Source: a virus (taxonomy: Duplodnaviria; Heunggongvirae; Uroviricota; Caudoviricetes). From it: 64,000 nucleotides of DNA. Below are positions 1 through 64,000 of this stretch, one piece after another. The position numbers and the translations under genes were made by a program. The stretch covers positions 1 through 64,000 of IMG/VR virus record IMGVR_UViG_2923350032_000001; one strand, written 5' to 3'. Below the pieces are notes generated by a model. The model was not told the DNA's origin. It saw nothing but the letters and a program-made list of their open reading frames with translations, and did no database searches. Positions within the stretch are counted from its first letter, which is position 1. The number at the start of each line of letters is the position of its first letter.

Positions 1-2302
1 TACTGGTAGGGTCAGGGAACCGTTGTTCCAGTTCTGAAAACTACTGTCATAAAGCCGCGTTTAGCTTCACCAGTAGCAGCATCAGTAAAGCCTCCATATA
101 CTCTGTATAACTCTTTTCTAACACCACATTTTTGGTGTTTTTGTCACCAAACAGCGTTATGGCATCAATAGTTGAGCGTTCCAGATCCCGGAAAGTGACG
201 ATATTACCGAAGGTTTTAGTAGCGTCATAAATGCGGTTGGTGCGGGAAAATGCCTGCATCAGGCCGTGAAAACGCAAGTTTTTATCGACGAATAGCGTGT
301 TCAATGTTGGTGCATCGAAGCCGGTTAAAAACATCCCCACGACAATTAGCAGATCGATATCCTGATTTTAACCCGCTGGGCTAAATCACGATAGTAGTTC
401 TGAAAACCGTTACTGTCGGTGCTAAAGTTAGTTTTAAAATGGCTGTTATATTCACGAATTGCAGCGTCCAGAAACTCTTTAGCACTGCTGTCCATTGCGC
501 TGGTATCAAAAGTTTCATCGGAAATTTCACCAATGGCATTTTGTTCTTCATTGGCGGCAAAGGAGAAGATTGTCGCAATACGCAGCGGTTTATAGGTAGC
601 CGATTTATTAGCGGCTTCTTCTTGTAACCGTTTAAACGTCGCATAATAGGTTTTCGCGGCATCCACGCTGCTCACTGCCAACATAGCATTAAAACCTTTT
701 GAGCCAGGGAAGGTACGGTGAGTTTTCTGGCGGAAATTATTCAGAATATATTGCGTGATTTCCTGAATACGCATGGGATGAAGAAACGCCTGCTGATTTT
801 CAGCCGCACTTAGTTTTTTCTCGTCAGTTTCTGTCTCTAAAGACTTAAATTGTGGCCGCACATCGTTGTAGTCTACCTTGAATTTGAGCACTTTTTCGTC
901 ACGAATCGCATCGGTAATTACATACGAATGCAATTCACGACCAAATACGCTGGCGGTTGTTTCTGAGCCTAAGGCGTTTTCCGGGAAAATAGGGGTACCG
1001 GTAAAACCAAACTGATAATAGCGTTTGAATTTCTTCTTCAGGTTTTTCTGCGCTTCTCCAAACTGGCTGCGGTGGCATTCATCAAATATAAACACCACTT
1101 GCTGATTGTATACAGGCAGGTCGCTTTCTGCTTTCATCAGGTTATTAAGTTTCTGAATAGTGGTGACGATAATTTGTTATCGTCCTTATCCAGATTTCGT
1201 TTAAGACCTGCGGTATTTTCCGAGCCGTTGACGCTGTCTGGCGAAAAACGCTGATATTCCTTCATGGTCTGGTAATCGAGGTCTTTCCTGTCGACCACGA
1301 AGAAGACTTTATCAATAAAGTCCAGTTCAGTTGCCAGACGCGCGGCTTTAAAGCTGGTCAGTGTTTTACCGGAACCGGTGGTGTGCCAGATAAAGCCACC
1401 GCTTTCCGGTTTTGACCAGTTCTTCGCTGTAAAGGAACTCTTAATTTTCCACAGAATGCGCTCGGTGGCGGCAATCTGGTACGGTCGCATCACCAGTAGC
1501 GTCTGACTACTGTCAAAAACGCTGTAGTTCACCAGAACATTCAGCAGAGTATGTTTCTGGAAAAAGTAGCGGTAAAGTCTTTGAGGTCTTTAATCAGCGT
1601 GTTGTCTGATTTCGCCCAGTTCATGGTGAAGTCAAAACTGTTTTTATCGCGCTTTGTCGTGTTGGCAAAATAACGGGTATCGGTGCCGTTAGAAATGACA
1701 AACAGTTGCAGATACTTAAACAGGGAATTTTCGCTGTTAAAACTCTCTTTACTGTAACGATGTATCTGGTTGAAAGCCTCACGAATCGCCACGCCGCGCT
1801 TTTTCAGTTCGATTTGCACCAGCGGCAAGCCATTAACCAGGATCGTGACGTCATAACGGTTAGCGTGAGAGCCTGCCTGTTCAAATTGCTGGATAATCTG
1901 CACCTTATTGCGCATGAGATTCTTTTTATCTATCAAATAGATGTTCTCAAGTCGCTCGTCATCAAAAATAAAGTCGCAAATATAGTCGATATGGATTTTA
2001 CGGGTCTTATCCAGAATGCCATCGCTCGGGTTGTCCAGATACTGCTCCGTGAAACGCCGCCATTCGCTGTCATTAAACACCACACCATTGAGGCTCTGAA
2101 GCTGTTCCCGAACATTGGCCAGCATCTCTGACTGAGATTTTACGGCTATAAATTCATAGCCCTGATTTTGCAGGTCCTGAATCAGTTCACGTTCCAGGTC
2201 CGATTCGCTCTGGTAGCTGTCGCCTGTTGGTTCAGCTTTGATGTACTTATCAAGAATGATAAAGTTATTGGATTCAGCAATGGTGTGTGTCTGATGAGTC
2301 AT
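1..2302 (-). pseudogene. hsdR: Type I restriction enzyme R subunit (HsdR), split into at least four frame-shifted pieces; C-terminal part runs off the window start
   Basis: Colinear minus-strand ORFs 1541-2302 (HsdR N-domain), 1137-1532 (helicase motif I TGSGKT), 346-1137 (motif II FDECH), 47-340 (motif [10 protein letters not shown]) lie in different frames. Confidence 0.6.
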
Positions 2303-2423
2303 AGCGCATCCTTTGTGCCGTTTGGCAAGGGCCGGAAGGGGGTTAATGGTGACTTCCAGCGTGTAAAAAATGGTCTATATACTGACCGGATGTTAAGGTG
2401 ATCCGGTCGGTAGCAATGGTCAA

Positions 2424-3554
2424 TTAATTACTGACAGTTTCAGGTTTCGGGAAACTGAACAGTAAATCACGGTAGTATTCGTATTGTTTCTGGCGCAACT
2501 CGATTTCACGCGGGAGACCTTCAGTGATGGAGTTGGTCAGGGTGTCGAATTTATCGAGTATTTCGACAATGCGAGCTTGTTCTTCTGAAGGTGGTACAGG
2601 TATTGGGAATTTTAAAAACATTGGTCGACGAAGTGAGGTAACCGATGAACTTACTGATGCTTTTTGAATATAGGTAAAAAAATATGCTGTTATATAGTGA
2701 TATACAAATCGCGGATTCATAAATGCATTTGGGACAATACGATATGCTCTCTGATGCAAAGCATATTTACCTTTAGCATAATGAAATACCTTCCCCACCC
2801 CGGCGCCATCTCCAGCCGTAATGATTGCTGTTTCATCAAAATCAAATACATTTAACTTTAATGGTTCACGTCCACGTGCATAAAAAATATATTTGCCATG
2901 TTCTATAGCATCTTGCGTATCATGGTTACCTGTTCCTATAACAGCCACTTCCCCCAAAGTCTTCCACTCAACCTCACCCTCTTTAAAACTCAACAACTGG
3001 TCGCGATAGTAATTGTACTGTTTTTTACGCATGTTAAGCTCAGCGGTAAGCTCAGCGGTAAGTGCAGTAAATTTATCCAGAATCCGAACGATTTCAGACT
3101 GGATGGCAAGGGATTTTTCTGGGGTATCCGGGCAGGGGATTGGTATCAAAATAGGTGATACATCACGTGGATAAACATGCGGAACACCACCACCACTCTT
3201 AAACTCATGGAGTTGTTGTTGCATATTCATCAAAAAATGATAGCAATATCGTGGTAACAAAATATTATGAGGTTTTACAGTAAATGCATCCGATACGAAA
3301 ATTGGTTCCTCCCACCAACTAACGAATCCCGCATACGCACCAGAACCTGCGATAACAATTGTTTGTCCGTCGCGATTACTAGTATTATGATAATAAGCTG
3401 GTGTACGTCCGCCAGCGACTACGGGGATGGTTCCATCAATAACATCTTTTTTTGTAATTGATGTGCCTCGCTTTAGTTCAGCTATACTGCCTAGTGTTTT
3501 CCACTCAACCTCAACCCCATCCAGCAATTTTTCCAGATAACTCATCTCGCTCAT
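2424..3554 (-). CDS. hsdS: Type I R-M specificity subunit HsdS, type IC (EcoR124-like)
   Basis: 376-aa ORF with two target-recognition halves; central TAELTAEL encoded by a 12-bp tandem duplication near 3040-3063; 4-bp overlap with hsdM. Confidence 0.85.
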
Positions 3555-5113
3555 TTCTGCACCTCGCAGCCTTCAATTTCAGCCACAATCGCATCAATAT
3601 CTTTGCGCAACTGGTCGATTTTGCTGACCGTGATTTTCAGCTCTGCATTCAACTCAGCGATATCGATAATTTCGCGAGTATCTTTCGCTTCAACATAGCT
3701 GCTCACCGACAGGTTATAGTCATTAGCGACAACGGCTTCAAACGCGACAGATTTCGCCAGATGGGCAACATCTTCCTTGCTGGCAAATACCTGCATAATC
3801 TGTTCGATATGAGCATCGGTCAGAATGTTGTTGTTAGTCTCTTTTTTGAACAGTTCGCTGGCATCAATAAACTGAACTTTGGTATCCGTTTTATGTTTAG
3901 ACAGCACCAGAATATTGACGGCAATAGTGGTGCCAAAGAACAGATTCGGTGCCAGTGAAATCACGGTTTCGACATAGTTATTATCAACCAGATACTGACG
4001 GATTTTCTGCTCCGCGCCGCCACGGTAAAAAATACCCGGGAAGCAAACAATCGCAGCACGACCTTTGGCAGAAAGATAGTTCAGCGCATGTAGTACAAAG
4101 GCGAAGTCAGCTTTTGATTTGGGGGCCAGAACGCCAGCCGGGGCAAAACGCTCATCGTTAATCAGAGTCGGGTCATCGCTGCCAATCCATTTCACCGAAT
4201 ACGGCGGGTTAGAAACGATGGCATCAAACGGTTTTTCATCTCTGAAGTGCGGTTCAGTCAGCGTATTGCCCAGCTTGATATCAAACTTGTCGTAGTTGAT
4301 GTTGTGCAAAAACATGTTCATACGCGCCAGGTTATAGGTCGTATGGTTGATTTCCTGACCAAAAAAACCTTCTTCGATGATATGGTCATCAAACTGTTTT
4401 TTAGCCTGCAACAACAGCGAACCGGAGCCTGCTGCCGGGTCGTAGATTTTGTTAACGTGGGTCTGCCCGTGCATAGCCAGTTGTGCAATCAGCTTAGAGA
4501 CGTGCTGCGGTGTAAAGAACTCGCCGCCTGACTTACCGGCATTCGCCGCATAGTTAGAAATCAGGAACTCATAGGCGTCACCGAACAGGTCAATCTGATG
4601 TTCGTGGAAGTCACCAAGTTTTAGCCCTTCAACCCCTTTCAGAACTGCAGCCAGGCGGGCATTTTTATCTTTAACGGTGTTACCCAGGCGGTTACTGGTA
4701 GTATCGAAATCAGCAAACAAACCTTTGATGTCAGCTTCTGAAGGGTAACCGTAAGCAGAACTTTCGATAGCAACGAAGATGCTGTTTAAATCCGCATTCA
4801 GTCTGTCATTGGTATTTGCTTTCGCAGCTACGTTGCAGAAAAGCTGACTGGGGTAGATGAAGTAACCTTTGGTTTTGATGGCATCGTCTTTAATGTCATC
4901 AGTAATTACGCTGTCATCCAGTTTCGCATAACAGATACTGTCATCACCGGCTTCAATATAGCTGGAAAAATTTTCGCTGATAAAACGGTAAAAAAGCGCG
5001 CCCAAAACGTACTGCTTAAAATCCCATCCATCGACTGAACCCCTGACATCGTTAGCAATTTGCCAGATTTGACGATGAAGCTCTGCACGTTGTTGAATAC
5101 TTGTCATTTTCAT
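3551..5113 (-). CDS. hsdM: Type I R-M N6-adenine DNA methyltransferase HsdM
   Basis: 520-aa ORF with NPPY catalytic motif (VSNPPYS) and SAM-binding region; translationally coupled to hsdS. Confidence 0.9.
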
Positions 5114-5249
5114 CCACTTATTTCAGGTTTATGTAATTGGCGGTGATTCTACAGCAACTTGGATGCTTTAGCAGTTCGGACATTAGGCTACGAATGACCT
5201 GCCTAGAGGTTTGTTAAGCCGCAAAGTGCTGGTGCTTTATGTCTGTGAA

Positions 5250-5282
5250 GTTTATAATTGTGTACACATAACGAGTACACGA
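5250..5282 (+). promoter_or_regulatory. phd-doc promoter/operator with Phd-binding palindromes
   Basis: TTTATAAT -10-like box followed by TGTGTACACA and GAGTACAC palindromes directly upstream of phd. Confidence 0.5.
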
Positions 5283-5289
5283 GGTGTTT

Positions 5290-5511
5290 ATGCAATCCAT
5301 TAACTTCCGTACCGCGCGCGGCAACCTTTCTGAAGTGCTCAACAATGTTGAGGCCGGGGAAGAGGTTGAAATCACCCGCAGAGGCCGTGAGCCAGCAGTA
5401 ATTGTCAGCAAGGCTACTTTCGAAGCCTACAAAAAAGCGGCGCTGGATGCTGAATTTGCATCCCTGTTTGACACCCTGGACTCCACCAACAAGGAACTGG
5501 TTAACCGATAA
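5290..5511 (+). CDS. phd: Phd antitoxin (prevent host death)
   Basis: 73-aa product [49 protein letters not shown]... matches remembered P1 Phd; start taken at the second in-frame ATG. Confidence 0.93.
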
Positions 5512-5891
5512 TGAGGCATATATCACCGGAAGAACTTATTGCGCTTCATGATGCGAATATAAACCGCTACGGCGGCCTGCCGGGAATGTCTGATCCGGGT
5601 AGGGCAGAGGCCATTATCGGGAGAGTTCAGGCCAGAGTTGCCTACGAAGAGATCACCGACCTTTTCGAAGTCTCCGCCACCTACCTGGTGGCTACAGCGA
5701 GAGGGCATATATTCAATGATGCCAATAAGCGTACCGCGCTAAACAGTGCGCTGTTATTTCTACGCCGTAACGGGGTGCAGGTATTTGATTCACCTGAACT
5801 GGCAGACCTTACCGTAGGGGCTGCGACCGGAGAGATATCTGTATCTTCTGTCGCCGCCACGTTACGTAGATTGTATGGTTCTGCGGAGTAG
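5511..5891 (+). CDS. doc: Doc toxin (death on curing), Fic-fold kinase
   Basis: 126-aa ORF overlapping the phd stop; sequence matches remembered P1 Doc. Confidence 0.93.
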
Positions 5892-20060: not shown

Positions 20061-20154
20061 GGCGAATCACAAGCGTCCGGTTTGACGCTGGTTTCGGTCG
20101 CAGTGCTGGCCCGCGCCTGGAAGCGCTGATAGCACTCCAGCCCGCAGAAATGCT

Positions 20155-20432
20155 GGCACTGTTGCAAATAGTCGGTGGTGATAAACTTATCATCCCCTTT
20201 TGCTGATGGAGCTGCACATGAACCCATTCAAAGGCCGGCATTTTCAGCGTGACATCATTCTGTGGGCCGTACGCTGGTACTGCAAATACGGCATCAGTTA
20301 CCGTGAGCTGCAGGAGATGCTGGCTGAACGCGGAGTGAATGTCGATCACTCCACGATTTACCGCTGGGTTCAGCGTTATGCGCCTGAAATGGAAAAACGG
20401 CTGCGCTGGTACTGGCGTAACCCTTCCGATCT
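20155..20432 (+). mobile_element. Truncated IS26 (first 278 bp: IR plus 5' part of tnpA)
   Basis: 14-bp IR GGCACTGTTGCAAA at 20155-20168; tnpA N-terminal 72 codons identical to the complete copy, then abrupt junction. Confidence 0.9.
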
Positions 20433-21252
20433 GGCACTGTTGCAAAGTTAGCGATGAGGCAGCCTTTTGTCTTATTCAAAGGCCTTACATTTCAAAAACT
20501 CTGCTTACCAGGCGCATTTCGCCCAGGGGATCACCATAATAAAATGCTGAGGCCTGGCCTTTGCGTAGTGCACGCATCACCTCAATACCTTTGATGGTGG
20601 CGTAAGCCGTCTTCATGGATTTAAATCCCAGCGTGGCGTTGATTATCCGTTTCAGTTTGCCATGATCGCATTCAATCACGTTGTTCCGGTACTTAATCTG
20701 TCGGTGTTCAACGTCAGACGGGCACCGGCCTTCGCGTTTGAGCAGAGCAAGCGCGCGACCATAGGCGGGCGCTTTATCCGTGTTGATGAATCGTGGGATC
20801 TGCCACTTCTTCACGTTGTTGAGGATTTTACCCAGAAACCGGTATGCAGCTTTGCTGTTACGACGGGAGGAGAGATAAAAATCGACAGTGCGGCCCCGGC
20901 TGTCGACGGCCCGGTACAGATACGCCCAGCGGCCATTGACCTTCACGTAGGTTTCATCCATGTGCCACGGGCAAAGATCGGAAGGGTTACGCCAGTACCA
21001 GCGCAGCCGTTTTTCCATTTCAGGCGCATAACGCTGAACCCAGCGGTAAATCGTGGAGTGATCGACATTCACTCCGCGTTCAGCCAGCATCTCCTGCAGC
21101 TCACGGTAACTGATGCCGTATTTGCAGTACCAGCGTACGGCCCACAGAATGATGTCACGCTGAAAATGCCGGCCTTTGAATGGGTTCATGTGCAGCTCCA
21201 TCAGCAAAAGGGGATGATAAGTTTATCACCACCGACTATTTGCAACAGTGCC
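20433..21252 (-). mobile_element. Complete IS26 (820 bp, IS6 family)
   Basis: 14-bp IRs at 20433-20446 and 21239-21252; internal 234-codon transposase. Confidence 0.95.
20485..21189 (-). CDS. tnpA: IS26 transposase
   Basis: [34 protein letters not shown]... 234 aa; the ORF-track N-terminal extension MLMELH is rejected. Confidence 0.95.
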   Translation of the reverse strand: MNPFKGRHFQRDIILWAVRWYCKYGISYRELQEMLAERGVNVDHSTIYRWVQRYAPEMEKRLRWYWRNPSDLCPWHMDETYVKVNGRWAYLYRAVDSRGRTVDFYLSSRRNSKAAYRFLGKILNNVKKWQIPRFINTDKAPAYGRALALLKREGRCPSDVEHRQIKYRNNVIECDHGKLKRIINATLGFKSMKTAYATIKGIEVMRALRKGQASAFYYGDPLGEMRLVSRVFEM

Positions 21253-21266
21253 CCATATCAGCCCCC

Positions 21267-21857
<591 letters not shown>

Positions 21858-21963
21858 TTAACTGATTCTACGAGATGTCATTTGTCCATTGTGCCAACTG
21901 TTATTATGGATATCGTAATTCGTACGAATCGCGCTGTTACAGGATGTATAGCAACCTTAATAA

Positions 21964-23196
21964 TTATTTGAATATATCGGTTATAGTTGGGTAATTATAC
22001 ATCTTAAGCTTATCTCTAAATTTCATAGAAAATATAGGGTCTACCTTACATCTCTGTGAGAGCTTTGCAAGCCTTAGCTCCCTCTCTTTCATAATATCTT
22101 TGTATTCTCTATCAATACTCTCCTGAATTTGCTGATTCTCAACAGGAGACGGTTTTGTAATTTTATCCCATTGATAAGTTGGATTCTCAGTGTAATTTAA
22201 ATCATCATTTTGAAGTAATTTCTCAAGATGAGACATAGCATTTTCATATAGCATTCTATCTTGGGGCAACATACTTGCAACACGCACTTCGCTTTCAATT
22301 TCCGATACTATCATTTCAAGTTGACGTTTTTCCATCGCTATAGCTACACGGAATGGAAACAGGGCTTCTTGCTTAATCATTTGACAATTCACATTATTGT
22401 TTATGTCACTAAGTAATTTTACAAATGAGAACTTCGCTAAAGGCTGCTGATTTATGACACTCTGTCTAACTGGCATTGTGTAGCTCGGTGTTTTTTCAAG
22501 TGTTTTCTTCACTTGCTCTATAGCAACATTAGGAGTTTTGAGAACAGTCTTTGCTGGAATACGTAGCACCATAAACCCCTCCTTTATTGAATATTCATCA
22601 CGAATACGATCTCGCTCTATTTGTTCAGGGGATGAATGCCATGCTGCACCATCAATTTCTATAATTTGGCGTCCATTTACGACAAAATCAAAACGATAAC
22701 GCTTATAGGGCACTTGCATTTCAAGCACTAAGTCAGGAGAAACTAACATTCCAGATTTAGGTTTAAGATTAAACTCTGCAACCATTTTACGAAGAAATGC
22801 CTCCTCAGCCGGAGATTCGCAACCTTTGCAAAATATATCAAGCCAGTTTTCTGCGTCAGCGTCAACAGTTTGCCACCATGCTAACAGTCCGCGTCGGTGT
22901 CCATATAATCGTTCATCTGACGGTTTTGTTAATGGCTTTGTTAACGGTTTAATTAAGGGTTCATTTAACGGCTTATTTAACGGATTTAATAACGATTCAT
23001 TTAATGGTTTGATTGACGGTCTATTTGACGACTCAATCGGTGGTTTAGATGATGATTTGTTTTTTTTATCAAAACCTACGATAGTTATATATGCTACATA
23101 TAGCATCATGCCTGCAACAGGCCATACACATGGATAAATCACGTAACACAACAGTAATAGAACAATAGTCCCAAAAAATGTTAACTTCTTCCGCAT
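21964..23196 (-). CDS. Membrane-anchored protein with Pro-rich tetrapeptide repeats and a DUF559/Vsr-like endonuclease-fold domain
   Basis: 410 aa; N-terminal TM helices; PLNKPLNEPLIKPLTKPLTKP repeats; motif IEIDGAAWHSS...RDRIRDEY...GFMVLRI; low-GC gene. Confidence 0.55.
   Translation of the reverse strand: MRKKLTFFGTIVLLLLCYVIYPCVWPVAGMMLYVAYITIVGFDKKNKSSSKPPIESSNRPSIKPLNESLLNPLNKPLNEPLIKPLTKPLTKPSDERLYGHRRGLLAWWQTVDADAENWLDIFCKGCESPAEEAFLRKMVAEFNLKPKSGMLVSPDLVLEMQVPYKRYRFDFVVNGRQIIEIDGAAWHSSPEQIERDRIRDEYSIKEGFMVLRIPAKTVLKTPNVAIEQVKKTLEKTPSYTMPVRQSVINQQPLAKFSFVKLLSDINNNVNCQMIKQEALFPFRVAIAMEKRQLEMIVSEIESEVRVASMLPQDRMLYENAMSHLEKLLQNDDLNYTENPTYQWDKITKPSPVENQQIQESIDREYKDIMKERELRLAKLSQRCKVDPIFSMKFRDKLKMYNYPTITDIFK
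22922..23030. repeat. Imperfect 12-bp tandem repeat array (about 9 units) inside ORF 21964-23196
   Basis: Units GGNTTNNTTAAY repeated head to tail; encodes the Pro-rich tetrapeptide repeats. Confidence 0.7.
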
Positions 23197-23269: not shown

Positions 23270-23706
23270 ACACCAACGGAAATAACACTCTAAAGCTCCA
23301 CCGCCAGCACCACCAGCACCACCAGCACCACCAGCACCACCAGCACCACCAGCAACTGCACCCAAGGTAGAAGTTCCTTTAATATTATATCCAGTAACAC
23401 TACCAGCTACTGCACCGAGAACAGCACCGAAAGTCTGAGCTGCTTATTTATTAGCTGTATTATCAACTTTTACTTTGGCTGGGAGAACAGAGATTATATT
23501 TACTACTCTTGTTTTGAATTAAGTTGGGCTGTGTCGTACACATCTGCCGCATATTCAGCACCATTAGACTGACACCCTGAGAGAAAAATTGCAGAAACAA
23601 CCATGACGCATAAAGAAGAAATTTTAGCCATTAGAATCATCCCAGAAAAAAATATAATCCAAGAAAATCTATCACATAAGCCAAATACAAACAAGATTAC
23701 AAACAA
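23270..23706 (-). pseudogene. Decayed SlyB/Pcp-like glycine-zipper outer-membrane lipoprotein
   Basis: ORF 23503-23706 has a lipobox (AIFLSGC) and DVYDTAQLNSKQ resembling SlyB; downstream in another frame a Gly-zipper GAVLGAVAGSVTG...(GAG)5 follows, separated by stop codons. Confidence 0.4.
23305..23349. repeat. Perfect 9-bp tandem repeat CAGCACCAC x5
   Basis: Direct reading; encodes (Gly-Ala-Gly)5 on the minus strand. Confidence 0.9.
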
Positions 23707-43007: not shown

Positions 43008-43079
43008 TGTTTTTTTATATCGTGTTTTCGGTACCATTCAGGCATCGCCCTTCAATGGGCATTAGTTAGGAGTCGTCAG

Positions 43080-57944: not shown

Positions 57945-58006
57945 CGGTAAATGGGGCCATCGACTGGCTTAACCGCGCTTCTTATTTTTTCACCCTTGAC
58001 GTATAG
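57842..58006 (+). pseudogene. DUF115/MptE-like protein, copy 2, N-terminal fragment interrupted by an IS91-family element
   Basis: 54 codons MFPKNKFRGSDRVIIVGSGPS...IIAVNGA; homologous C-terminal part resumes at about 59850-60156. Confidence 0.45.
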
Positions 58007-59850
58007 GAAATTGAAAAACCAGTCGATACCATTGTCCACGCCTTATGCCACGTGAGCCTTTCTGCTTTTCCCACCACTCCGGTGGTTTCCCTCTCTGTAT
58101 GGTCGATTTTTATACCGTAACAGGCTGTTTTTTATACTTTCACCGATTCCCGGGCACACTTAGCCTGTGTCAGGCCGGCATATACCTCAGTAGACTGATA
58201 TCCCGCGCGTTTTTCTTCAGCCCTGATACATTCAGCCCCGCAATGGCCCGGCGGTATACCATCCGGCAGCCACACAGCACGCATTCGAACGGGTCACGAC
58301 TCAGGAACTGTTTCACCATTTGTGCATAGCACACTTTCGCCACTGGTTCCGGTTTATCCATCCCCAGTGCACGGTACACCTGCGGCAGCTTCTCTCCACA
58401 CACACGGTTGGCAAGGAACCCGAAGTACCTCACCATCTTAAAAAACTTCTCCGGGATGTGCTGTTTCAGCCTCGCGACCAGCTCACGCTGTGTCAGCGTT
58501 TCCGTCGCCGTTTCTCCCGTTTTGTGGTCCAGGTAACGGAAGCTCAGGCTTGCCCCTCCGTTGTAATGAGCCAGTCGGGAAGCCGCTATTGGTGGCTTCT
58601 TCAGATAACGACCCAGGTAGCGTGCCGTATTCCGCCCTCCGGCTGTCTTCTTCGACATGTACACATGCCAGTATTTTCCGCCGGATTTCAGCACCAGGCT
58701 TCTCCACTGTGATTCCGTCGTGATATGTGACAACGACTCCGGCATTGCTATCCCCTCTGACCACGCTTTCAGAAGCAGCTGCCGCATATTCCACATCCAC
58801 CGTGAACGCATCGCGTCTTTCAGGAAGCTCAGCTTTTTCCACTGACCATGCTTATTCAGACCTCCACAGGTTACAGACACATGTACATGCGGATGCCAGT
58901 TGAGACGACGGCCATACGTGTGGATGGCGCAGAAGATACCGGGTTCCAGCCCCCGTTTTCGGGCGGCATACAGCAGATTCTCCACCGCCAGACGGCACAC
59001 GTCATTCAGCAGCCAGCGGTTGCTTTCGAACACCGGCCACAGCGTGTCCGGCAGGGTGAAGACCAGATGTACCCAGTCGCAGTCAGGAAGACGATTCAGC
59101 TGTGTTGCTGTCCACAGGTCTGTGGCCTTCTTTCCGCAGGACGGGCAGGCACGGCTGCCGCATGAGTTGGTCAGGTACTTTACGTGCTGACAGTCCGGGT
59201 TATCACACCCGAACTCTTTTACACCCAGTATCCGTGTGCCGCAGGCCAGCATTTTGGTGACGGCTTCAACCTCGATATCGCGCAGACCGCCCGCATCCAG
59301 GAAGGACGTCCAGCACTGGTTGGCTGTGAACAGACGTTTCAGAGGGCGGGGAGTAAAACCGGACAACATGAGGATGGATTAAACCCCGGTATCCTGTAGC
59401 AGGGTAAGGGCTGCTGTATCGCCACGGCGCTTCAGGATGGAGGTCGTCACCATCGCAGGTGGTGGGTCCATGGGTTTGAGCATTTTCATCCAGTCCCATT
59501 CTCGTTGTGAGAGCTTCTCAGCACCAACAGAGAGCAGAACTGTATCGATACTTTTGCGGGTCAACATAAGGGGATGAGTCCTTAATAAAACAGGTCCTCA
59601 GAGCATACATATTCTGCGGGGCGTGCGGCAACAACAGGACGAACCGGGGCGGTTTTCAATTTGCAGCCGCCAGGCTGCCGTGGTTCATCCATCCCCAGAC
59701 AATATGCGGCGCGTTGGTCGTGGCCGCCGTCGCCGTGGTGTTTGTTATTGCATGGCACTACCCGATGTTAAAGAACGTGAAGTCAGAGATGGCGTTCTGT
59801 GCTTCCGTCGTGTGGCTGAACGCGGCATGGAGCCAAAAAATACGAATTCT
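58007..59850 (-). mobile_element. IS91-family element (rolling-circle HUH transposase); ends approximate
   Basis: 399-aa transposase plus typical small upstream ORF, located between the two halves of the copy-2 gene. Confidence 0.5.
58170..59369 (-). CDS. IS91-family HUH transposase
   Basis: 399 aa; N-terminal Zn-binding Cys cluster; HUH motif (HPHVH). Confidence 0.8.
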   Translation of the reverse strand: MLSGFTPRPLKRLFTANQCWTSFLDAGGLRDIEVEAVTKMLACGTRILGVKEFGCDNPDCQHVKYLTNSCGSRACPSCGKKATDLWTATQLNRLPDCDWVHLVFTLPDTLWPVFESNRWLLNDVCRLAVENLLYAARKRGLEPGIFCAIHTYGRRLNWHPHVHVSVTCGGLNKHGQWKKLSFLKDAMRSRWMWNMRQLLLKAWSEGIAMPESLSHITTESQWRSLVLKSGGKYWHVYMSKKTAGGRNTARYLGRYLKKPPIAASRLAHYNGGASLSFRYLDHKTGETATETLTQRELVARLKQHIPEKFFKMVRYFGFLANRVCGEKLPQVYRALGMDKPEPVAKVCYAQMVKQFLSRDPFECVLCGCRMVYRRAIAGLNVSGLKKNARDISLLRYMPA

Positions 59851-60137
59851 CCCGAGTGGTGGGCGTGGCGCTGGTCCGCACATTTCGGCCTTTGCGAAGA
59901 TGAGAATGAAATTGCCAGCGGCAATAGTGCATATGGTGCTCTGAACCTGGCTTTCCATATCGGATTCAAACATGTAGCTCTGGTGGGCGTTGACGCTACG
60001 CAAGAACTACGCGTTCACTCCGGCGGCACGCCAAAAAATCTAAGTCACCTGCCTTTGTTATTCCAGTCTGCGCGTGAACAGATTGACGTTGTTTCATGCG
60101 GGAAAATGGGAGGTATTCCGCAGATGACTCTTAAAGA

Positions 60138-60830
60138 ATGGCTGAAAAATACATGATGGCACCCACAATTTATCACCGTATCGACGGTACCAAATACAGG
60201 AATGTCTGGGTTGTTGGTGATCTGCATGGTTGCTACACCAGACTGATGTCCGAACTCCATCGTGTGGATTTTGACCCGGCGCAGGATTTACTGATATCGG
60301 TCGGCGACCTTATCGATCGCGGTACTGAAAATGTCGAATGTCTGGAACTATTGCAGATGCCCTGGTTCAGGGCAGTGATGGGGAACCATGAGCGGCTGAT
60401 GATTGATGCGTTAAGTCCAGATGGCAACGTGAATAACTGGCTAATGAATGGCGGACAATGGTTCTTCATGCTGGACACTGATCAGGAAATATTAGCCTGG
60501 GCGCTGGTGGAGCTGGTAAAGCGTCTGCCCTATATCATTGAGTTGAACACCGGGCAAGAAACTATCGTTATAGCCCATGCCGACTATCCGGATAATGAAT
60601 ACCAATTCGGTAAGGAGGTACCGCTTTTCAACGTTGTCTGGGCGCGCGAGCGTATCAGTGATTCGATGGATGATATTGGTGGCGAAATTTCGGGCGCAGA
60701 TCGTTTTATCTTTGGTCACACTCCGGTGAAAAGCCCGAAGACATTCTGGAATCAGCAGTATATCGACACTGGTGCCGTATTTTGCGGAAACCTGACATTG
60801 ATGAAAGTGAAAGGTGATGGTGCAGCATGA
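60138..60830 (+). CDS. ppp: Ser/Thr protein phosphatase (lambda PPase-like)
   Basis: 230 aa with GDLHG, GDLIDRG, GNHE metallophosphatase motifs. Confidence 0.85.
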
Positions 60831-61528
60831 AGATTGCTTTAGTTTTTCGCTCTGGTGGTGACTATAACGCTTCCGATGTGCAGTGGCTGGTTAATCAACT
60901 GCCAAAAGGCTATGAAATTATTTGCCTGACAGACCTGAAGCGTTTACATGTACCTGGCGTCAAAGTTGTCCCATTGATCAACCAGTGGCAAAAGTGCCGT
61001 GGCTGGTGGGCGAAAATCGAGTTGTTCCGACCGGATATAACCGATGATCTGTTCTATCTGGATTTGGACACGGTTATTGCCGGTGATATACGCCCAATCC
61101 TAGAGCATCCACCAACCAGCTTCACCATGCTTAGGGATTTTTACCATCCACAATATCGTGGCAGCGGTGCCCTGTGGATACCAAATAGTGTTAAAGCGCA
61201 TATCTGGAGTTCATTCTGGCAAGATCCGGAAGGTTGGATTTCTCGTTGTGTCACTACTGAGTGTTGGGGTGACCAGGGGTTCTTACGAAAGGTTATGGGC
61301 GATGATACACCAGCATTTCAGGATCTGTATCCAGGATGGTTTGTAAGTTACAAGGCCGATGTTGTGGAACCTGGTTCAAAATATGCGAGCGCGCGTTACT
61401 CCAGGGGGAATGGGGCATTACCAAAAGACTGCCGAATAATCTTTTTCCACGGCAAACCGCGACCTCGCGAAGTGTCAGAGGATTGGCTTCCCCTTATCAG
61501 CTCATTTTTTGAGCGAGAATCAGAATAA
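60827..61528 (+). CDS. Putative GT-A-type glycosyltransferase-like protein (DxD motif)
   Basis: 233 aa; YLDLDTV motif; coupled to ppp. Confidence 0.35.
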
Positions 61529-61529
61529 T

Positions 61530-61546
61530 ATTGCTCTAATAATTCC
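61530..61546 (+). promoter_or_regulatory. C1 operator
   Basis: ATTGCTCTAATAATTCC. Confidence 0.6.
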
Positions 61547-61578
61547 GTATTTTTAAAACGTGATGTACACTCATTACG

Positions 61579-61595
61579 TTTTTTATTAGAGCAAT
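61579..61595 (-). promoter_or_regulatory. C1 operator, inverted partner
   Basis: TTTTTTATTAGAGCAAT; 32 bp from the preceding operator. Confidence 0.55.
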
Positions 61596-61609
61596 CTACA
61601 AGGTGCACT

Positions 61610-61828
61610 ATGTGGCCATTCCGACGGAAATATCACTACTGGCTGATCGCCTTTGTTACGCCGACCGGCGGTATCAGGCATGTCATCACCAGGTATCGCA
61701 ACAAGAGACTCACCTTAGCCAGAATTTTACAGGCTGCCATAGGTGAGGGACTGGATACAAATTGCGTAGTCCTTCCTCCTTCATACTTAGGAAAAATGAC
61801 CGAAGCACAAGCTAATACGGAACTTTGA
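61610..61828 (+). CDS. Small hypothetical protein
   Basis: 72-aa ORF after the operator pair. Confidence 0.35.
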   Translation: MWPFRRKYHYWLIAFVTPTGGIRHVITRYRNKRLTLARILQAAIGEGLDTNCVVLPPSYLGKMTEAQANTEL

Positions 61829-61829
61829 A

Positions 61830-63092
61830 ATGAGCACTTCAACACAAAACCAATCAATCGAAAATGTATGTATCCCTGATGTCCTGAATGCCGGTATCCC
61901 GGCCATTATCCAGAACATCCGGGCCGCGCAACGCCGCGTTAGTTGTGATGACCTCACAGCACGTTTTTTTGATAATGCGGTTCAGTCAGCGGAGATGCTT
62001 CACGCACAGCTTATTGATGTTTATAACGCAGAAGCTGATAGCCATAACTCCCTGGTAGATGCAGCTGAAAATATGCAGTTGGATCTCGGTCTGAAGGGTA
62101 AAGAAATTGAAGAGCTTCAGCTGCAAATTGAACATTTGAAACGCCAGCAACAGGACGCGATCGACGATGCGACGCATGACGCCAACCAGCGTGCTGATAA
62201 TGCCGAACGTATAAGCATTGAGCTGGAAACAAAACTCAATGAAATGACCGCGATGGTTGAACTGCGGAACTCACAGATTTCAACGCTAAAATCTCAATAT
62301 AAAGAGATCATGAAACTTGATCCTTTTAACCTTGAGAAACGCTATAACAAAGCTAAAAGCGAGCGACAGGAACTGCGTAAGCAGGTCGCCGATCTTAACC
62401 AACAGCTCAAAAAAACTATTAAAGATGCAAGCGAAGCGCGCGTGGCATTTGCTAATAAAAAAGCAGAGGTTACCGCGCTGGTTAATGAGAATGCCAAATT
62501 TGCGACGCTCAAGAAGGAAATGTATGGCATTACTGAGCGCCGTTTCCCTGCAAGCAAACTTCATCCGACGTTAGGGCAAATATCCTTCTTCCCGCGCCTC
62601 CTGGCTTATGGGATCTCATCGCCTAAAGAGTTCAATAACGAGCGTCCTTATATCGTGTCTAAGCTGGACTTTGCTTATCAGTTCTGCTGCGACATGGGCT
62701 ATGCCATTGATATCCGAATCAACGAATGGTTGATGCCAAACTTCCAGCCGTTGGCAATTTTCCGCGAGTTCCAGCCGGAAGGTTGGGTAGAGTTCTTCCA
62801 TGAATTGATCTGTAAAGAGATGGAAAGCCGCCGCCCGGAACTGGTCCGTCGAGTTGAGTGGGCGCAAGAGGTTATGTTGGCAGATGCAGAGCTGCCGTTC
62901 GAACCGGAATTCATTGATGATCTGGCAACTAAAGGGCTGCATACCCTGTTTGATGTGGTTACCCGCCGTCATGAGCAGTTGGTTGTCGAATTGGGTTTAG
63001 AGGAAACTGCGGCAAGAAGACTTCTCGATGTTTGCTATGCACGTAGCGATGCATGGGAAAAAGAGAACGGCGGCACTATTTACGTTCGCTGA
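61830..63092 (+). CDS. Coiled-coil protein with conserved C-terminal domain
   Basis: 420-aa ORF. Confidence 0.4.
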   Translation: MSTSTQNQSIENVCIPDVLNAGIPAIIQNIRAAQRRVSCDDLTARFFDNAVQSAEMLHAQLIDVYNAEADSHNSLVDAAENMQLDLGLKGKEIEELQLQIEHLKRQQQDAIDDATHDANQRADNAERISIELETKLNEMTAMVELRNSQISTLKSQYKEIMKLDPFNLEKRYNKAKSERQELRKQVADLNQQLKKTIKDASEARVAFANKKAEVTALVNENAKFATLKKEMYGITERRFPASKLHPTLGQISFFPRLLAYGISSPKEFNNERPYIVSKLDFAYQFCCDMGYAIDIRINEWLMPNFQPLAIFREFQPEGWVEFFHELICKEMESRRPELVRRVEWAQEVMLADAELPFEPEFIDDLATKGLHTLFDVVTRRHEQLVVELGLEETAARRLLDVCYARSDAWEKENGGTIYVR

Positions 63093-63164
63093 TAGTTACA
63101 GTGTCACTTTTAATGCTGGTGGAGTGCGCCCACCAGCATTTTTTTCGTCCAATGAGGAGGGCAT

Positions 63165-63671
63165 TTGAGTATTTTCAATAAACACGCACACCAGGAACGT
63201 CCGTACATCGTCATAGTAGATATTGATGGAACGATATCAGAGGCAACGGAAGACAGGCTGCATTTACTTCCACCACCTGGCAAAGGTGCATTAACAGAGC
63301 ACTGGAACGAGTTTAACCTTGCCTGTGACACTGATGCTCCCATCACTCCAGTTATTGATATGGTGCGCCAGTTGTCCAGCATTTACACGCTCTGGTTTGT
63401 AACCGGGCGCTGTGAGATAGCCAGGGATAAAACACGAGCCTGGCTGCGGAAGTACGTAACAAATGGGGCTGAGCCTTTGCTATCTATGCGTCCTGCCACC
63501 GATGACAGAAATGACGGCCATGCAAAGATTGATCTCCTGAAGAAAATTGGTCTAAGTAAAATTGCGTTCGCGCTGGAAGATAAGATTGAAGTGGCGCGTG
63601 TTTTCAGGAGTCACGGCGTACTTACGTTAATGGTCAGGGAATATGAAAATGCGCTTCTTCATCAACAATAA
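63165..63671 (+). CDS. HAD-superfamily phosphatase-like protein
   Basis: 168 aa with N-terminal DIDGT motif. Confidence 0.5.
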   Translation: MSIFNKHAHQERPYIVIVDIDGTISEATEDRLHLLPPPGKGALTEHWNEFNLACDTDAPITPVIDMVRQLSSIYTLWFVTGRCEIARDKTRAWLRKYVTNGAEPLLSMRPATDDRNDGHAKIDLLKKIGLSKIAFALEDKIEVARVFRSHGVLTLMVREYENALLHQQ

Positions 63672-63687
63672 TTGCTCTAATAAATCT
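63671..63687 (+). promoter_or_regulatory. C1 operator
   Basis: ATTGCTCTAATAAATCT followed by TGATTTTTA, same extended motif as at 13667. Confidence 0.7.
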
Positions 63688-63769
63688 TGATTTTTAAAAC
63701 AGAGAAAGTGAAAATAAAAATATGCCGCAAGGGGCGCGGCATGTATCCAATCAATCACAGGAGCTGAAG

Positions 63770-63856
63770 ATATGAACACGGCATTCAAAATCATTATGAC
63801 CGCGATCTATTTCTGGCTGTTCTCTATCACTTTTGGCGGCATCGTCGCGCATGGGT
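63770..63856 (+). CDS. Small hydrophobic peptide
   Basis: 28 codons MNTAFKIIMTAIYFWLFSITFGGIVAHG, about 85 bp after a C1 operator. Confidence 0.3.
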
Positions 63857-64000
63857 AAGGGGAGTATATTAGCCATTTGGAACCCCACGAGCTCTTGCGG
63901 GTTTAATTAAGAACCCGCAAGAAAAACACGAATTGGGCTATATTTTTCCGCCTACGCCTTTAAACTTCTCAATAAACGAGACGATTTTCTGGAAAACTGC

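Follow-up and report, generated by a model that had tools for sequence, protein, structure and literature searches.

EcoR124I, encoded by plasmid R124, is the archetype of the type IC restriction-modification systems and recognises GAA N6 RTCG. Its hsdR gene has a promoter of its own, located within the spacer between hsdS and hsdR. Type I systems are grouped into families on the basis of cross-hybridisation, antibody cross-reaction and complementation between subunits, and the equivalent at the sequence level is near-identity within a family. Tyndall et al. reportedly described in 1997 that P1 DNA flanks a type IC hsd cassette. The reference record of P1 (NC_005856) carries a misc_feature annotation by which positions 87969-88647 share 98% identity with the region upstream of the EcoDXXI hsd locus, and positions 84263-84482 and 84399-84482 are annotated as homologous to the sequence downstream of EcoDXXI and R124/3 hsdR. 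Within the EcoR124 family the copy number of a repeat in hsdS, which encodes the amino acids TAEL, sets the length of the spacer in the recognition sequence (PMC3874165). This type of control is textbook knowledge for the family and not new.

The window (the whole stretch of 64,000 nucleotides analysed here) carries EcoR124-type (type IC) hsd genes at positions 1-5113 and 63938-64000, arranged in the order hsdM-hsdS-hsdR on the coding strand. Table 1 gives an overview of the features of the cassette and its surroundings.

Table 1 Features of the hsd cassette, its flanks and the single-base differences within hsdR
Feature	Position	Strand	Description
hsdR codons 1-768	2-2302	-	four reading frames, single-base indels; blastx map and ORF pieces
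hsdR segment 1	2302-1562	-	aa 1-247 of intact 1038-aa homologue
hsdR segment 2	1565-1170	-	aa 247-378 of intact homologue
hsdR segment 3	1176-367	-	aa 377-646 of intact homologue
hsdR segment 4	367-2	-	aa 647-768 of intact homologue
Indel 1	37-40		A4 in window, A3 in all relatives compared (+1)
Indel 2	92-93		T1 in window, T2 in all relatives compared (-1)
Indel 3	365-369		T4 in window, T5 in all relatives compared (-1)
Indel 4	1172-1175		T3 in window, T4 in all relatives compared (-1)
Indel 5	1565-1566		G1 in window, G2 in all relatives compared (-1)
hsdS-hsdR intergenic spacer	2303-2423	-	121 bp; ORF coordinates
hsdS	2424-3554	-	376 aa, intact; specificity subunit; ORF
12-bp tandem repeat	3035-3062	-	ACCGCTGAGCTT x2 plus partial flanks; encodes TAELTAEL in the central conserved helix of HsdS; Tandem Repeats Finder: 12-bp unit, 2.3 copies, 100% matches
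hsdM	3551-5113	-	520 aa, intact; type IC N6-adenine methyltransferase subunit; ORF
Right cassette edge, upstream of hsdM	5114-5213		P1 homology resumes at 5214 = P1 87970, immediately after humD
phd-doc addiction module	5284-5891	+	flanks cassette
phd	5284/5290-5511	+	divergent from hsdM
doc	5511-5891	+	divergent from hsdM
Left cassette edge, downstream of hsdR	63863-63937		P1 homology ends at 63862 = P1 84482, just before pmgT
hsdR codons 1019-1038 plus stop	63938-64000	-	far end of window

HsdM matches the PADLOC MTase_I model and is identical to the EcoR124 M protein (PDB 7bst_D) at 514 of 520 residues over its full length (98.8%). HsdR of a near-identical relative with an intact allele shows about 99% identity to EcoR124I HsdR (PDB 2w00) over residues 1-1038, and the hsdR frames within the window are 99-100% identical to the intact 1038-aa homologue. 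HsdS has the typical type IC architecture of two variable recognition domains, a central conserved helix bearing the TAEL repeat and a conserved C-terminal helix; in the N-terminal, central and C-terminal constant regions it matches EcoR124I HsdS (chain 7bst_A) exactly, and the two-copy TAEL context is also found in that chain. The type IC order M-S-R is present together with the gap between hsdS and hsdR, and the start codon of hsdS overlaps the stop codon of hsdM by 4 bp in the sequence ATGA. A scan of positions 2250-5350 for consensus promoters and terminators yielded sites no more common than in shuffled sequence. Since HsdM and HsdR are nearly identical to the archetype, which is what family membership means at the sequence level, the locus is, judged by its sequence, a long-known EcoR124-family (type IC) restriction-modification cassette.

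Differences to the described systems are found in HsdS. Both target-recognition domains (roughly residues 20-140 and 215-330 in the alignment to 7bst_A) diverge from those of EcoR124I, and the half-sites recognised should therefore not be GAA and RTCG. EcoR124II, EcoDXXI and EcoprrI share the family, the constant regions and the repeat unit with the cassette of the window, but have a third TAEL unit and a gap of N7 (PMC3874165), whereas the window allele has two perfect copies. By analogy, HsdS and two HsdM subunits would form an M2S1 methyltransferase, whose bipartite target would be N6-methylated at one adenine per half. With two TAEL turns, the central coiled coil would be expected to give the spacing of EcoR124I, in which the gap is N6 and the methylated adenines lie at a distance of 7 nt. 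Addition of two HsdR subunits would yield an R2M2S1 complex, which would translocate DNA from unmethylated targets and cut it at a distance.

The copy number of the repeat varies among public alleles. In an evenly spaced sample of plasmids, copies were inferred from differences in alignment span; 56 plasmids were informative, with two copies in 31, three in 24 and four in a single case, which was confirmed by direct reading of the sequence. Cassettes with at least 80% of the block were present on 504 plasmids of PLSDB. Other plasmids than the closest relatives of the window bear the cassette with a swapped N-terminal recognition domain (e.g. NZ_OX442409.1) or with three TAEL units. The HsdS protein of the window (WP_085704300.1) occurs on 22 public contigs, and roughly one in four complete E. 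coli genomes contains a close homologue of hsdR.

The element carrying the cassette is a P1-like plasmid prophage, in which the cassette of roughly 6.1 kb exactly replaces pmgT-humD of P1 next to phd-doc. On the hsdM side it is bordered by phd-doc and on the hsdR side by the pap-pmgT intergenic sequence of P1. Homology to P1 stops and resumes at the very junctions to hsd flanks that are annotated in the P1 record, and P1-derived flanks as in the window are likewise known from EcoDXXI and R124/3. The arrangement as accessory cargo is thus already known, having been published in 1997 and annotated in the P1 reference record. As far as these features are concerned, the original prediction was borne out: it had described an EcoR124-like type IC system with intact and coupled hsdM and hsdS genes and two TAEL copies, inserted as accessory cargo where P1 has other genes.

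The gene for the restriction subunit looks different. As written, hsdR runs through four frames, every shifted segment terminates at a stop codon, and an additional patch between positions 93 and 40 is out of frame. The first frameshift reached by a ribosome is indel 5 at codon 246-247 or thereabouts, so that translation halts after 253 aa, inside the nuclease domain. With regard to the complete HsdR expected of a type IC system, the window thus holds a gene with five frameshifts, 749 bp of which (aa 769-1018, about 250 codons) lie outside the window.

The closest relatives were compared to the window in order to judge these breaks. Plasmids pL9-1 (NZ_CP142045.1) and pEC85-4-128k (NZ_CP158185.1) encode an identical HsdS (WP_085704300.1) and an identical HsdM within the same flanks, and the DNA of their cassettes matches that in the window apart from the five indels, hsdR being intact in both. 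Alignment of positions 1-20154 to pL9-1 gave no mismatch and five one-base gaps, all of them located at 37-1566, with none in the 18.6 kb adjoining hsdR. The remaining 40 kb or so that align to pL9-1 contain one homopolymer indel, two substitutions and one 18-bp difference in repeat copies. By chance, at least five of six indels would fall within 1.57 of 60 kb with a probability of about 7e-8. All five are changes of ±1 base in runs of 3, 2, 5, 4 and 2 bases (lengths of the intact allele). The hsdS allele of the window is also present in six independent assemblies (pL9-1, pEC85-4-128k, Logan ERR1879957, GCA_051681865.1, GCA_043235925.1 and GCA_020416345.1). All of them encode the intact HsdR of 1038 aa and deviate from the window at these five sites; over the shared stretch they are otherwise identical to it, save for one SNP common to two of them. 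The intact state was also found in relatives of 96-97% identity, and the 25 E. coli matches listed for positions 1-2400 all extend over 2403 bases, exceeding this stretch by three. The frameshifted allele had no match of 100% identity in phage, plasmid and E. coli collections. A 39-mer across the indel at 365-369, the sole indel k-mer tested, was absent from viral, genome and metagenome contig collections, and no entry exists for the exact sequence of the truncated 253-aa product.

On the circle of pL9-1 the last base of the window corresponds to position 45153 and the first to 44403. Both ends of the window therefore fall inside hsdR, 749 bp apart, which places the indels at the beginning of what appears to be a circular contig opened there. 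From this circular mapping the start of the window appears to be the start of the contig, and the indels lie 37, 92, 365, 1172 and 1565 bases from it. The opposite visible end (59687-64000) is identical to pL9-1. An effect of the contig end would accordingly be one-sided, or else fall within the 749 bp outside the window. The clustering as such fits a cause specific to hsdR as well as one tied to the contig end, because both regions coincide.

Indels that are private, of homopolymer type, clustered and free of accompanying substitutions point to sequence error rather than pseudogenisation. We infer, with a probability of about 85%, that the five single-base changes are uncorrected errors in homopolymer length at the beginning of a long-read contig whose circle had been opened within hsdR. 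Most likely the real element encodes an intact HsdR of 1038 aa and is r+ m+, as far as can be read from sequence comparison. The description of hsdR in at least four frame-shifted pieces consequently applies to the gene as written, but its interpretation as decay does not stand: the breaks are five private ±1 changes, none of which comes with a substitution or recurs in any relative examined. The methylation-only state that had been proposed in addition is not supported either, since the breaks carry the pattern of sequence error.

It is very unlikely that the frameshifts are real and that hsdR is a pseudogene on a phage-plasmid expressing the M2S1 methyltransferase alone (r- m+). Such a state would agree with a stop in the nuclease domain next to untouched hsdM and hsdS genes and with the restriction of all five indels to hsdR, none occurring in the neighbouring 18.6 kb. 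It would also agree with the activity of the type IC methyltransferase in the absence of HsdR, which is established for the family (PMC2877798). Nevertheless, a single frameshift already inactivates hsdR, so selection cannot account for five. Neutral decay, in turn, would have left substitutions in hsdR and dozens of silent-site changes in the other 58 kb or so, but none was found in hsdR and only two elsewhere. In E. coli base substitutions are normally more common than indels, which also counts against real frameshifts. Moreover, none of the indels is shared with the six assemblies of the same allele or with three contigs of 96-98% identity, all of them checked base by base, the listed E. 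coli matches uniformly show the span longer by three bases, and the positions of the indels coincide with the apparent contig start. Even slighter is the likelihood of a deleted P1-like plasmid with a restriction-dead, methylation-only type IC system that could be shifted between N6 and N7 by gain or loss of TAEL units.

When restriction-modification systems are transferred, mutants that have lost restriction commonly arise, and one of the indels might be a genuine inactivating mutation, for example selected on entry into a host with unmodified DNA, the others being errors. The data cannot distinguish the five sites from each other. However, all of them represent the same type of ±1 homopolymer miscount, none is present in other assemblies of the allele and nothing sets any single one apart, which makes such a mixed origin extremely unlikely. 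Slippage in homopolymers as a source of phase variation in hsdR was rejected: the runs comprise just 2-5 bases, it would make no sense for five sites to be off at the same time, and none of the changes is seen in a relative. Contamination of the consensus by a paralogous type IC system on the chromosome (about 97% identical) was dismissed too, since it would introduce substitutions and not pure indels.

If the five indels were real, the locus could represent an epigenetic switch without restriction borne on a phage-plasmid. Nothing at the locus is new, and the system is already known. Frameshifts clustered where a record begins, with no substitutions against near-identical relatives, call for caution, and assembly error should be considered before gene decay. 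The locus confirms once more that the pmgT-humD slot of P1-like plasmids is home to type IC cassettes, and that their alleles vary by swaps of recognition domains and by two versus three TAEL units.

The hsd genes near the left end of the window are listed in the table below. The original prediction had described hsdM, hsdS with a TAEL repeat and a broken hsdR, and all of these are present, so that, at the level of the sequence, the description holds. The pieces of hsdR were placed on the intact homologue by a blastx map, and according to the ORF call a stop codon terminates every segment.

Genes, hsdR pieces and one-base gaps relative to plasmid pL9-1 at the hsd locus of the window
Feature	Position	Strand	Remarks
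hsdM	5113-3551	minus	520 aa (ORF call)
hsdS	3554-2424	minus	376 aa; ATG overlaps hsdM stop (ORF call)
hsdR start	2302	minus	121-bp gap separates hsdS from hsdR
hsdR piece, aa 1-247	2302-1562	minus	first frame (blastx)
hsdR piece, aa 247-378	1565-1170	minus	second frame (blastx)
hsdR piece, aa 377-646	1176-367	minus	third frame (blastx)
hsdR piece, aa 647-768	367-2	minus	first frame again; short out-of-frame patch between 93 and 40
Five one-base gaps	37-40, 92-93, 365-369, 1172-1175, 1565-1566		all within hsdR (alignment to pL9-1)

The five indels in hsdR are probably sequence errors, a reading to which we assign a probability of about 85%. Window positions 1-20154 align to pL9-1 (NZ_CP142045.1), a plasmid of E. 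coli from chicken with an intact hsdR, with 0 mismatches and exactly the five gaps. Along the remaining ~40 kb alignable to pL9-1, the two sequences differ by two substitutions, a homopolymer indel at 43016 and an 18-bp change in repeat copy number. With six indels in 60 kb, the chance of five or more lying within a single 1.57-kb stretch is ~7e-8. All five change the length of a homopolymer by +/-1, the runs of the intact allele comprising 3, 2, 5, 4 and 2 bases.

Plasmid pEC85-4-128k (NZ_CP158185.1; complete, human urine) encodes the same HsdS and HsdM proteins as the window next to an intact hsdR, and differs at the same five sites and by one SNP private to this plasmid. The exact HsdS protein of the window was found in 22 public contigs. 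Among these, hsdR encodes 1038 aa in all seven places shown with the complete neighbouring gene, and four contigs match the window base for base wherever the two overlap, the five sites excepted. The intact state was also seen in two contexts at 96% identity and in one contig at 97.7%, at the indel sites that their alignments cover. Among the E. coli matches listed for window 1-2400, 25 of 25 span 2403 bases. No protein on record equals the truncated 253-aa HsdR product, and a 39-mer with the 365-369 indel had no match in viral, genome and metagenome collections.

The original prediction of a decayed hsdR and a methylation-only state is thus not supported, since the indels are private to the window, come with zero substitutions and face an intact hsdR in the relatives. 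Real pseudogenisation is very unlikely, because a single frameshift already inactivates hsdR, because five changes built up neutrally in 1.6 kb should be accompanied by local substitutions and by numerous differences in the rest of the sequence, none of which was seen, and because none of the five indels is common to any relative. A mixture of error and real mutation among the five is even less probable.

Sequence error also has to be viewed with the position of the indels. Window position 1 corresponds to pL9-1 44403 and position 64000 to 45153, the window running in descending direction; it therefore begins and ends inside hsdR with only 749 bp missing between end and start. This would be explained most simply if a circular contig of ~64.75 kb had been linearised inside hsdR and the window were its first 64,000 bases. 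In that case, the indels would lie at distances of 37, 92, 365, 1172 and 1565 bases from the start of the contig. In long-read assemblies of circular molecules the ends are typically poorly polished, and homopolymer miscounts are the typical residual error.

The window as a whole looks like a P1-like plasmid of the pL9-1 type reduced by deletion to ~64.75 kb. Two segments of pL9-1, 89.3-134 kb and 0-24.2 kb, are absent from it; they carry virion genes, among them those for tail fibre and lysis, as well as the large methylase and the greater part of the resistance region. Junctions coincide with a copy of IS26 (20433-21252) and with an element of the IS91 family (57992-59689); the window regions concerned are 20154-22500, 28669 and 57992-59689. 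Provided that the deletions are genuine, we are probably dealing with a defective prophage plasmid. Apart from those in hsdR, the only single-base indel against pL9-1 is that at 43016 (T7, T6 in pL9-1); none of the pL9-1 genes listed by PLSDB, whose gene table is incomplete, covers it. At 23299-23354, a 9-bp tandem array, CACCACCAG, reaches 6.2 copies and exceeds its pL9-1 counterpart by two units (18 bp); no ORF of at least 80 aa overlaps it.

The assignment to a type IC, EcoR124-like system was confirmed. HsdM is identical to the EcoR124 M protein (PDB 7bst) at 514 of 520 residues over the full length, and the nearest relative has an intact HsdR with ~99% identity to EcoR124I HsdR (PDB 2w00) across all 1038 residues. 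PADLOC models identify the three proteins as type I MTase, specificity subunit and REase. In an alignment to the EcoR124I specificity chain, the N-terminal, central and C-terminal constant regions of the window HsdS are identical, including the two-copy TAEL context, whereas both target-recognition domains are divergent. Judged by these alignments, the locus belongs to the EcoR124 family of type IC systems, and its specificity is a different, uncharacterised one. While the identity of the parts is established here, we infer their function from the family: M2S1 would methylate one adenine per half-site of a bipartite target, R2M2S1 would translocate and cleave unmodified DNA, and two TAEL turns would set EcoR124I-type spacing. 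Both recognition domains differ from characterised ones, and the half-sites are predicted to be other than GAA and RTCG.

The predicted two-copy TAEL repeat was recovered by Tandem Repeats Finder as a perfect 12-bp repeat (2.3 copies, 3035-3062), whose coding strand reads ACCGCTGAGCTT twice and gives TAELTAEL. EcoR124I, which recognises GAA N6 RTCG, has two copies of this repeat, and three are present in EcoR124II (GAA N7 RTCG), EcoDXXI and EcoprrI; altered copy number alters the gap as predicted (PMC3874165). A plasmid collection was queried with a synthetic three-copy version of the repeat region; 60 matches were sampled at even intervals, and the copy number of each was read from how far its record span departed from the query span. 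Among the 56 records that were informative, two copies occur in 31, three in 24 and four in one, so that two copies are one of two common states. The four-copy case was verified by sequence reading: positions 1283-1330 of the Enterobacter cloacae plasmid AP022136.1 lie in an IS30/IS6-flanked type IC hsdS remnant, one unit above the characterised maximum of three.

The HsdS of the P1-like plasmid NZ_OX442409.1 (5427-6563) shares the C-terminal recognition domain and two TAEL units with the window HsdS and has a different N-terminal domain, a pair that illustrates the known modular exchange. Its N-terminal recognition domain resembles its own C-terminal one (shared 12-residue motif), which suggests a near-palindromic target. 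Outside a P1 context, an HsdS protein identical to that of the window occurs in GCA_017593525.1 and Logan ERR5443133, in a cassette ~96% identical in DNA and neighboured by dynamin-like GTPase genes and IS5/IS66 elements. Thus, the specificity allele has moved between cassette backgrounds and contexts.

The proposed accessory cargo slot was borne out by comparison with P1 (NC_005856). P1 homology stops at window 63862 (P1 84482), just before pmgT, and restarts at 5214 (P1 87970), just after humD; the hsd cassette of ~6.1 kb, including 749 bp outside the window, replaces pmgT, pmgU, pmgV, upfM, upfN, upfO, hot, lxr and humD. Indeed, the P1 record itself notes hsd-flank homology at both junctions: 84263-84482 and 84399-84482 are matched to the DNA downstream of the hsdR genes of EcoDXXI and R124/3, and 87969-88647 to that upstream of the EcoDXXI hsd locus. 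The arrangement is very common: 504 PLSDB plasmids carry at least 80% of the 5.6-kb hsd block, and 1301 of the 5426 complete genomes of E. coli have a close hsdR homologue. With its P1 flanks it is reportedly the subject of Tyndall et al. (1997). Everything real at this hsd locus is already known.
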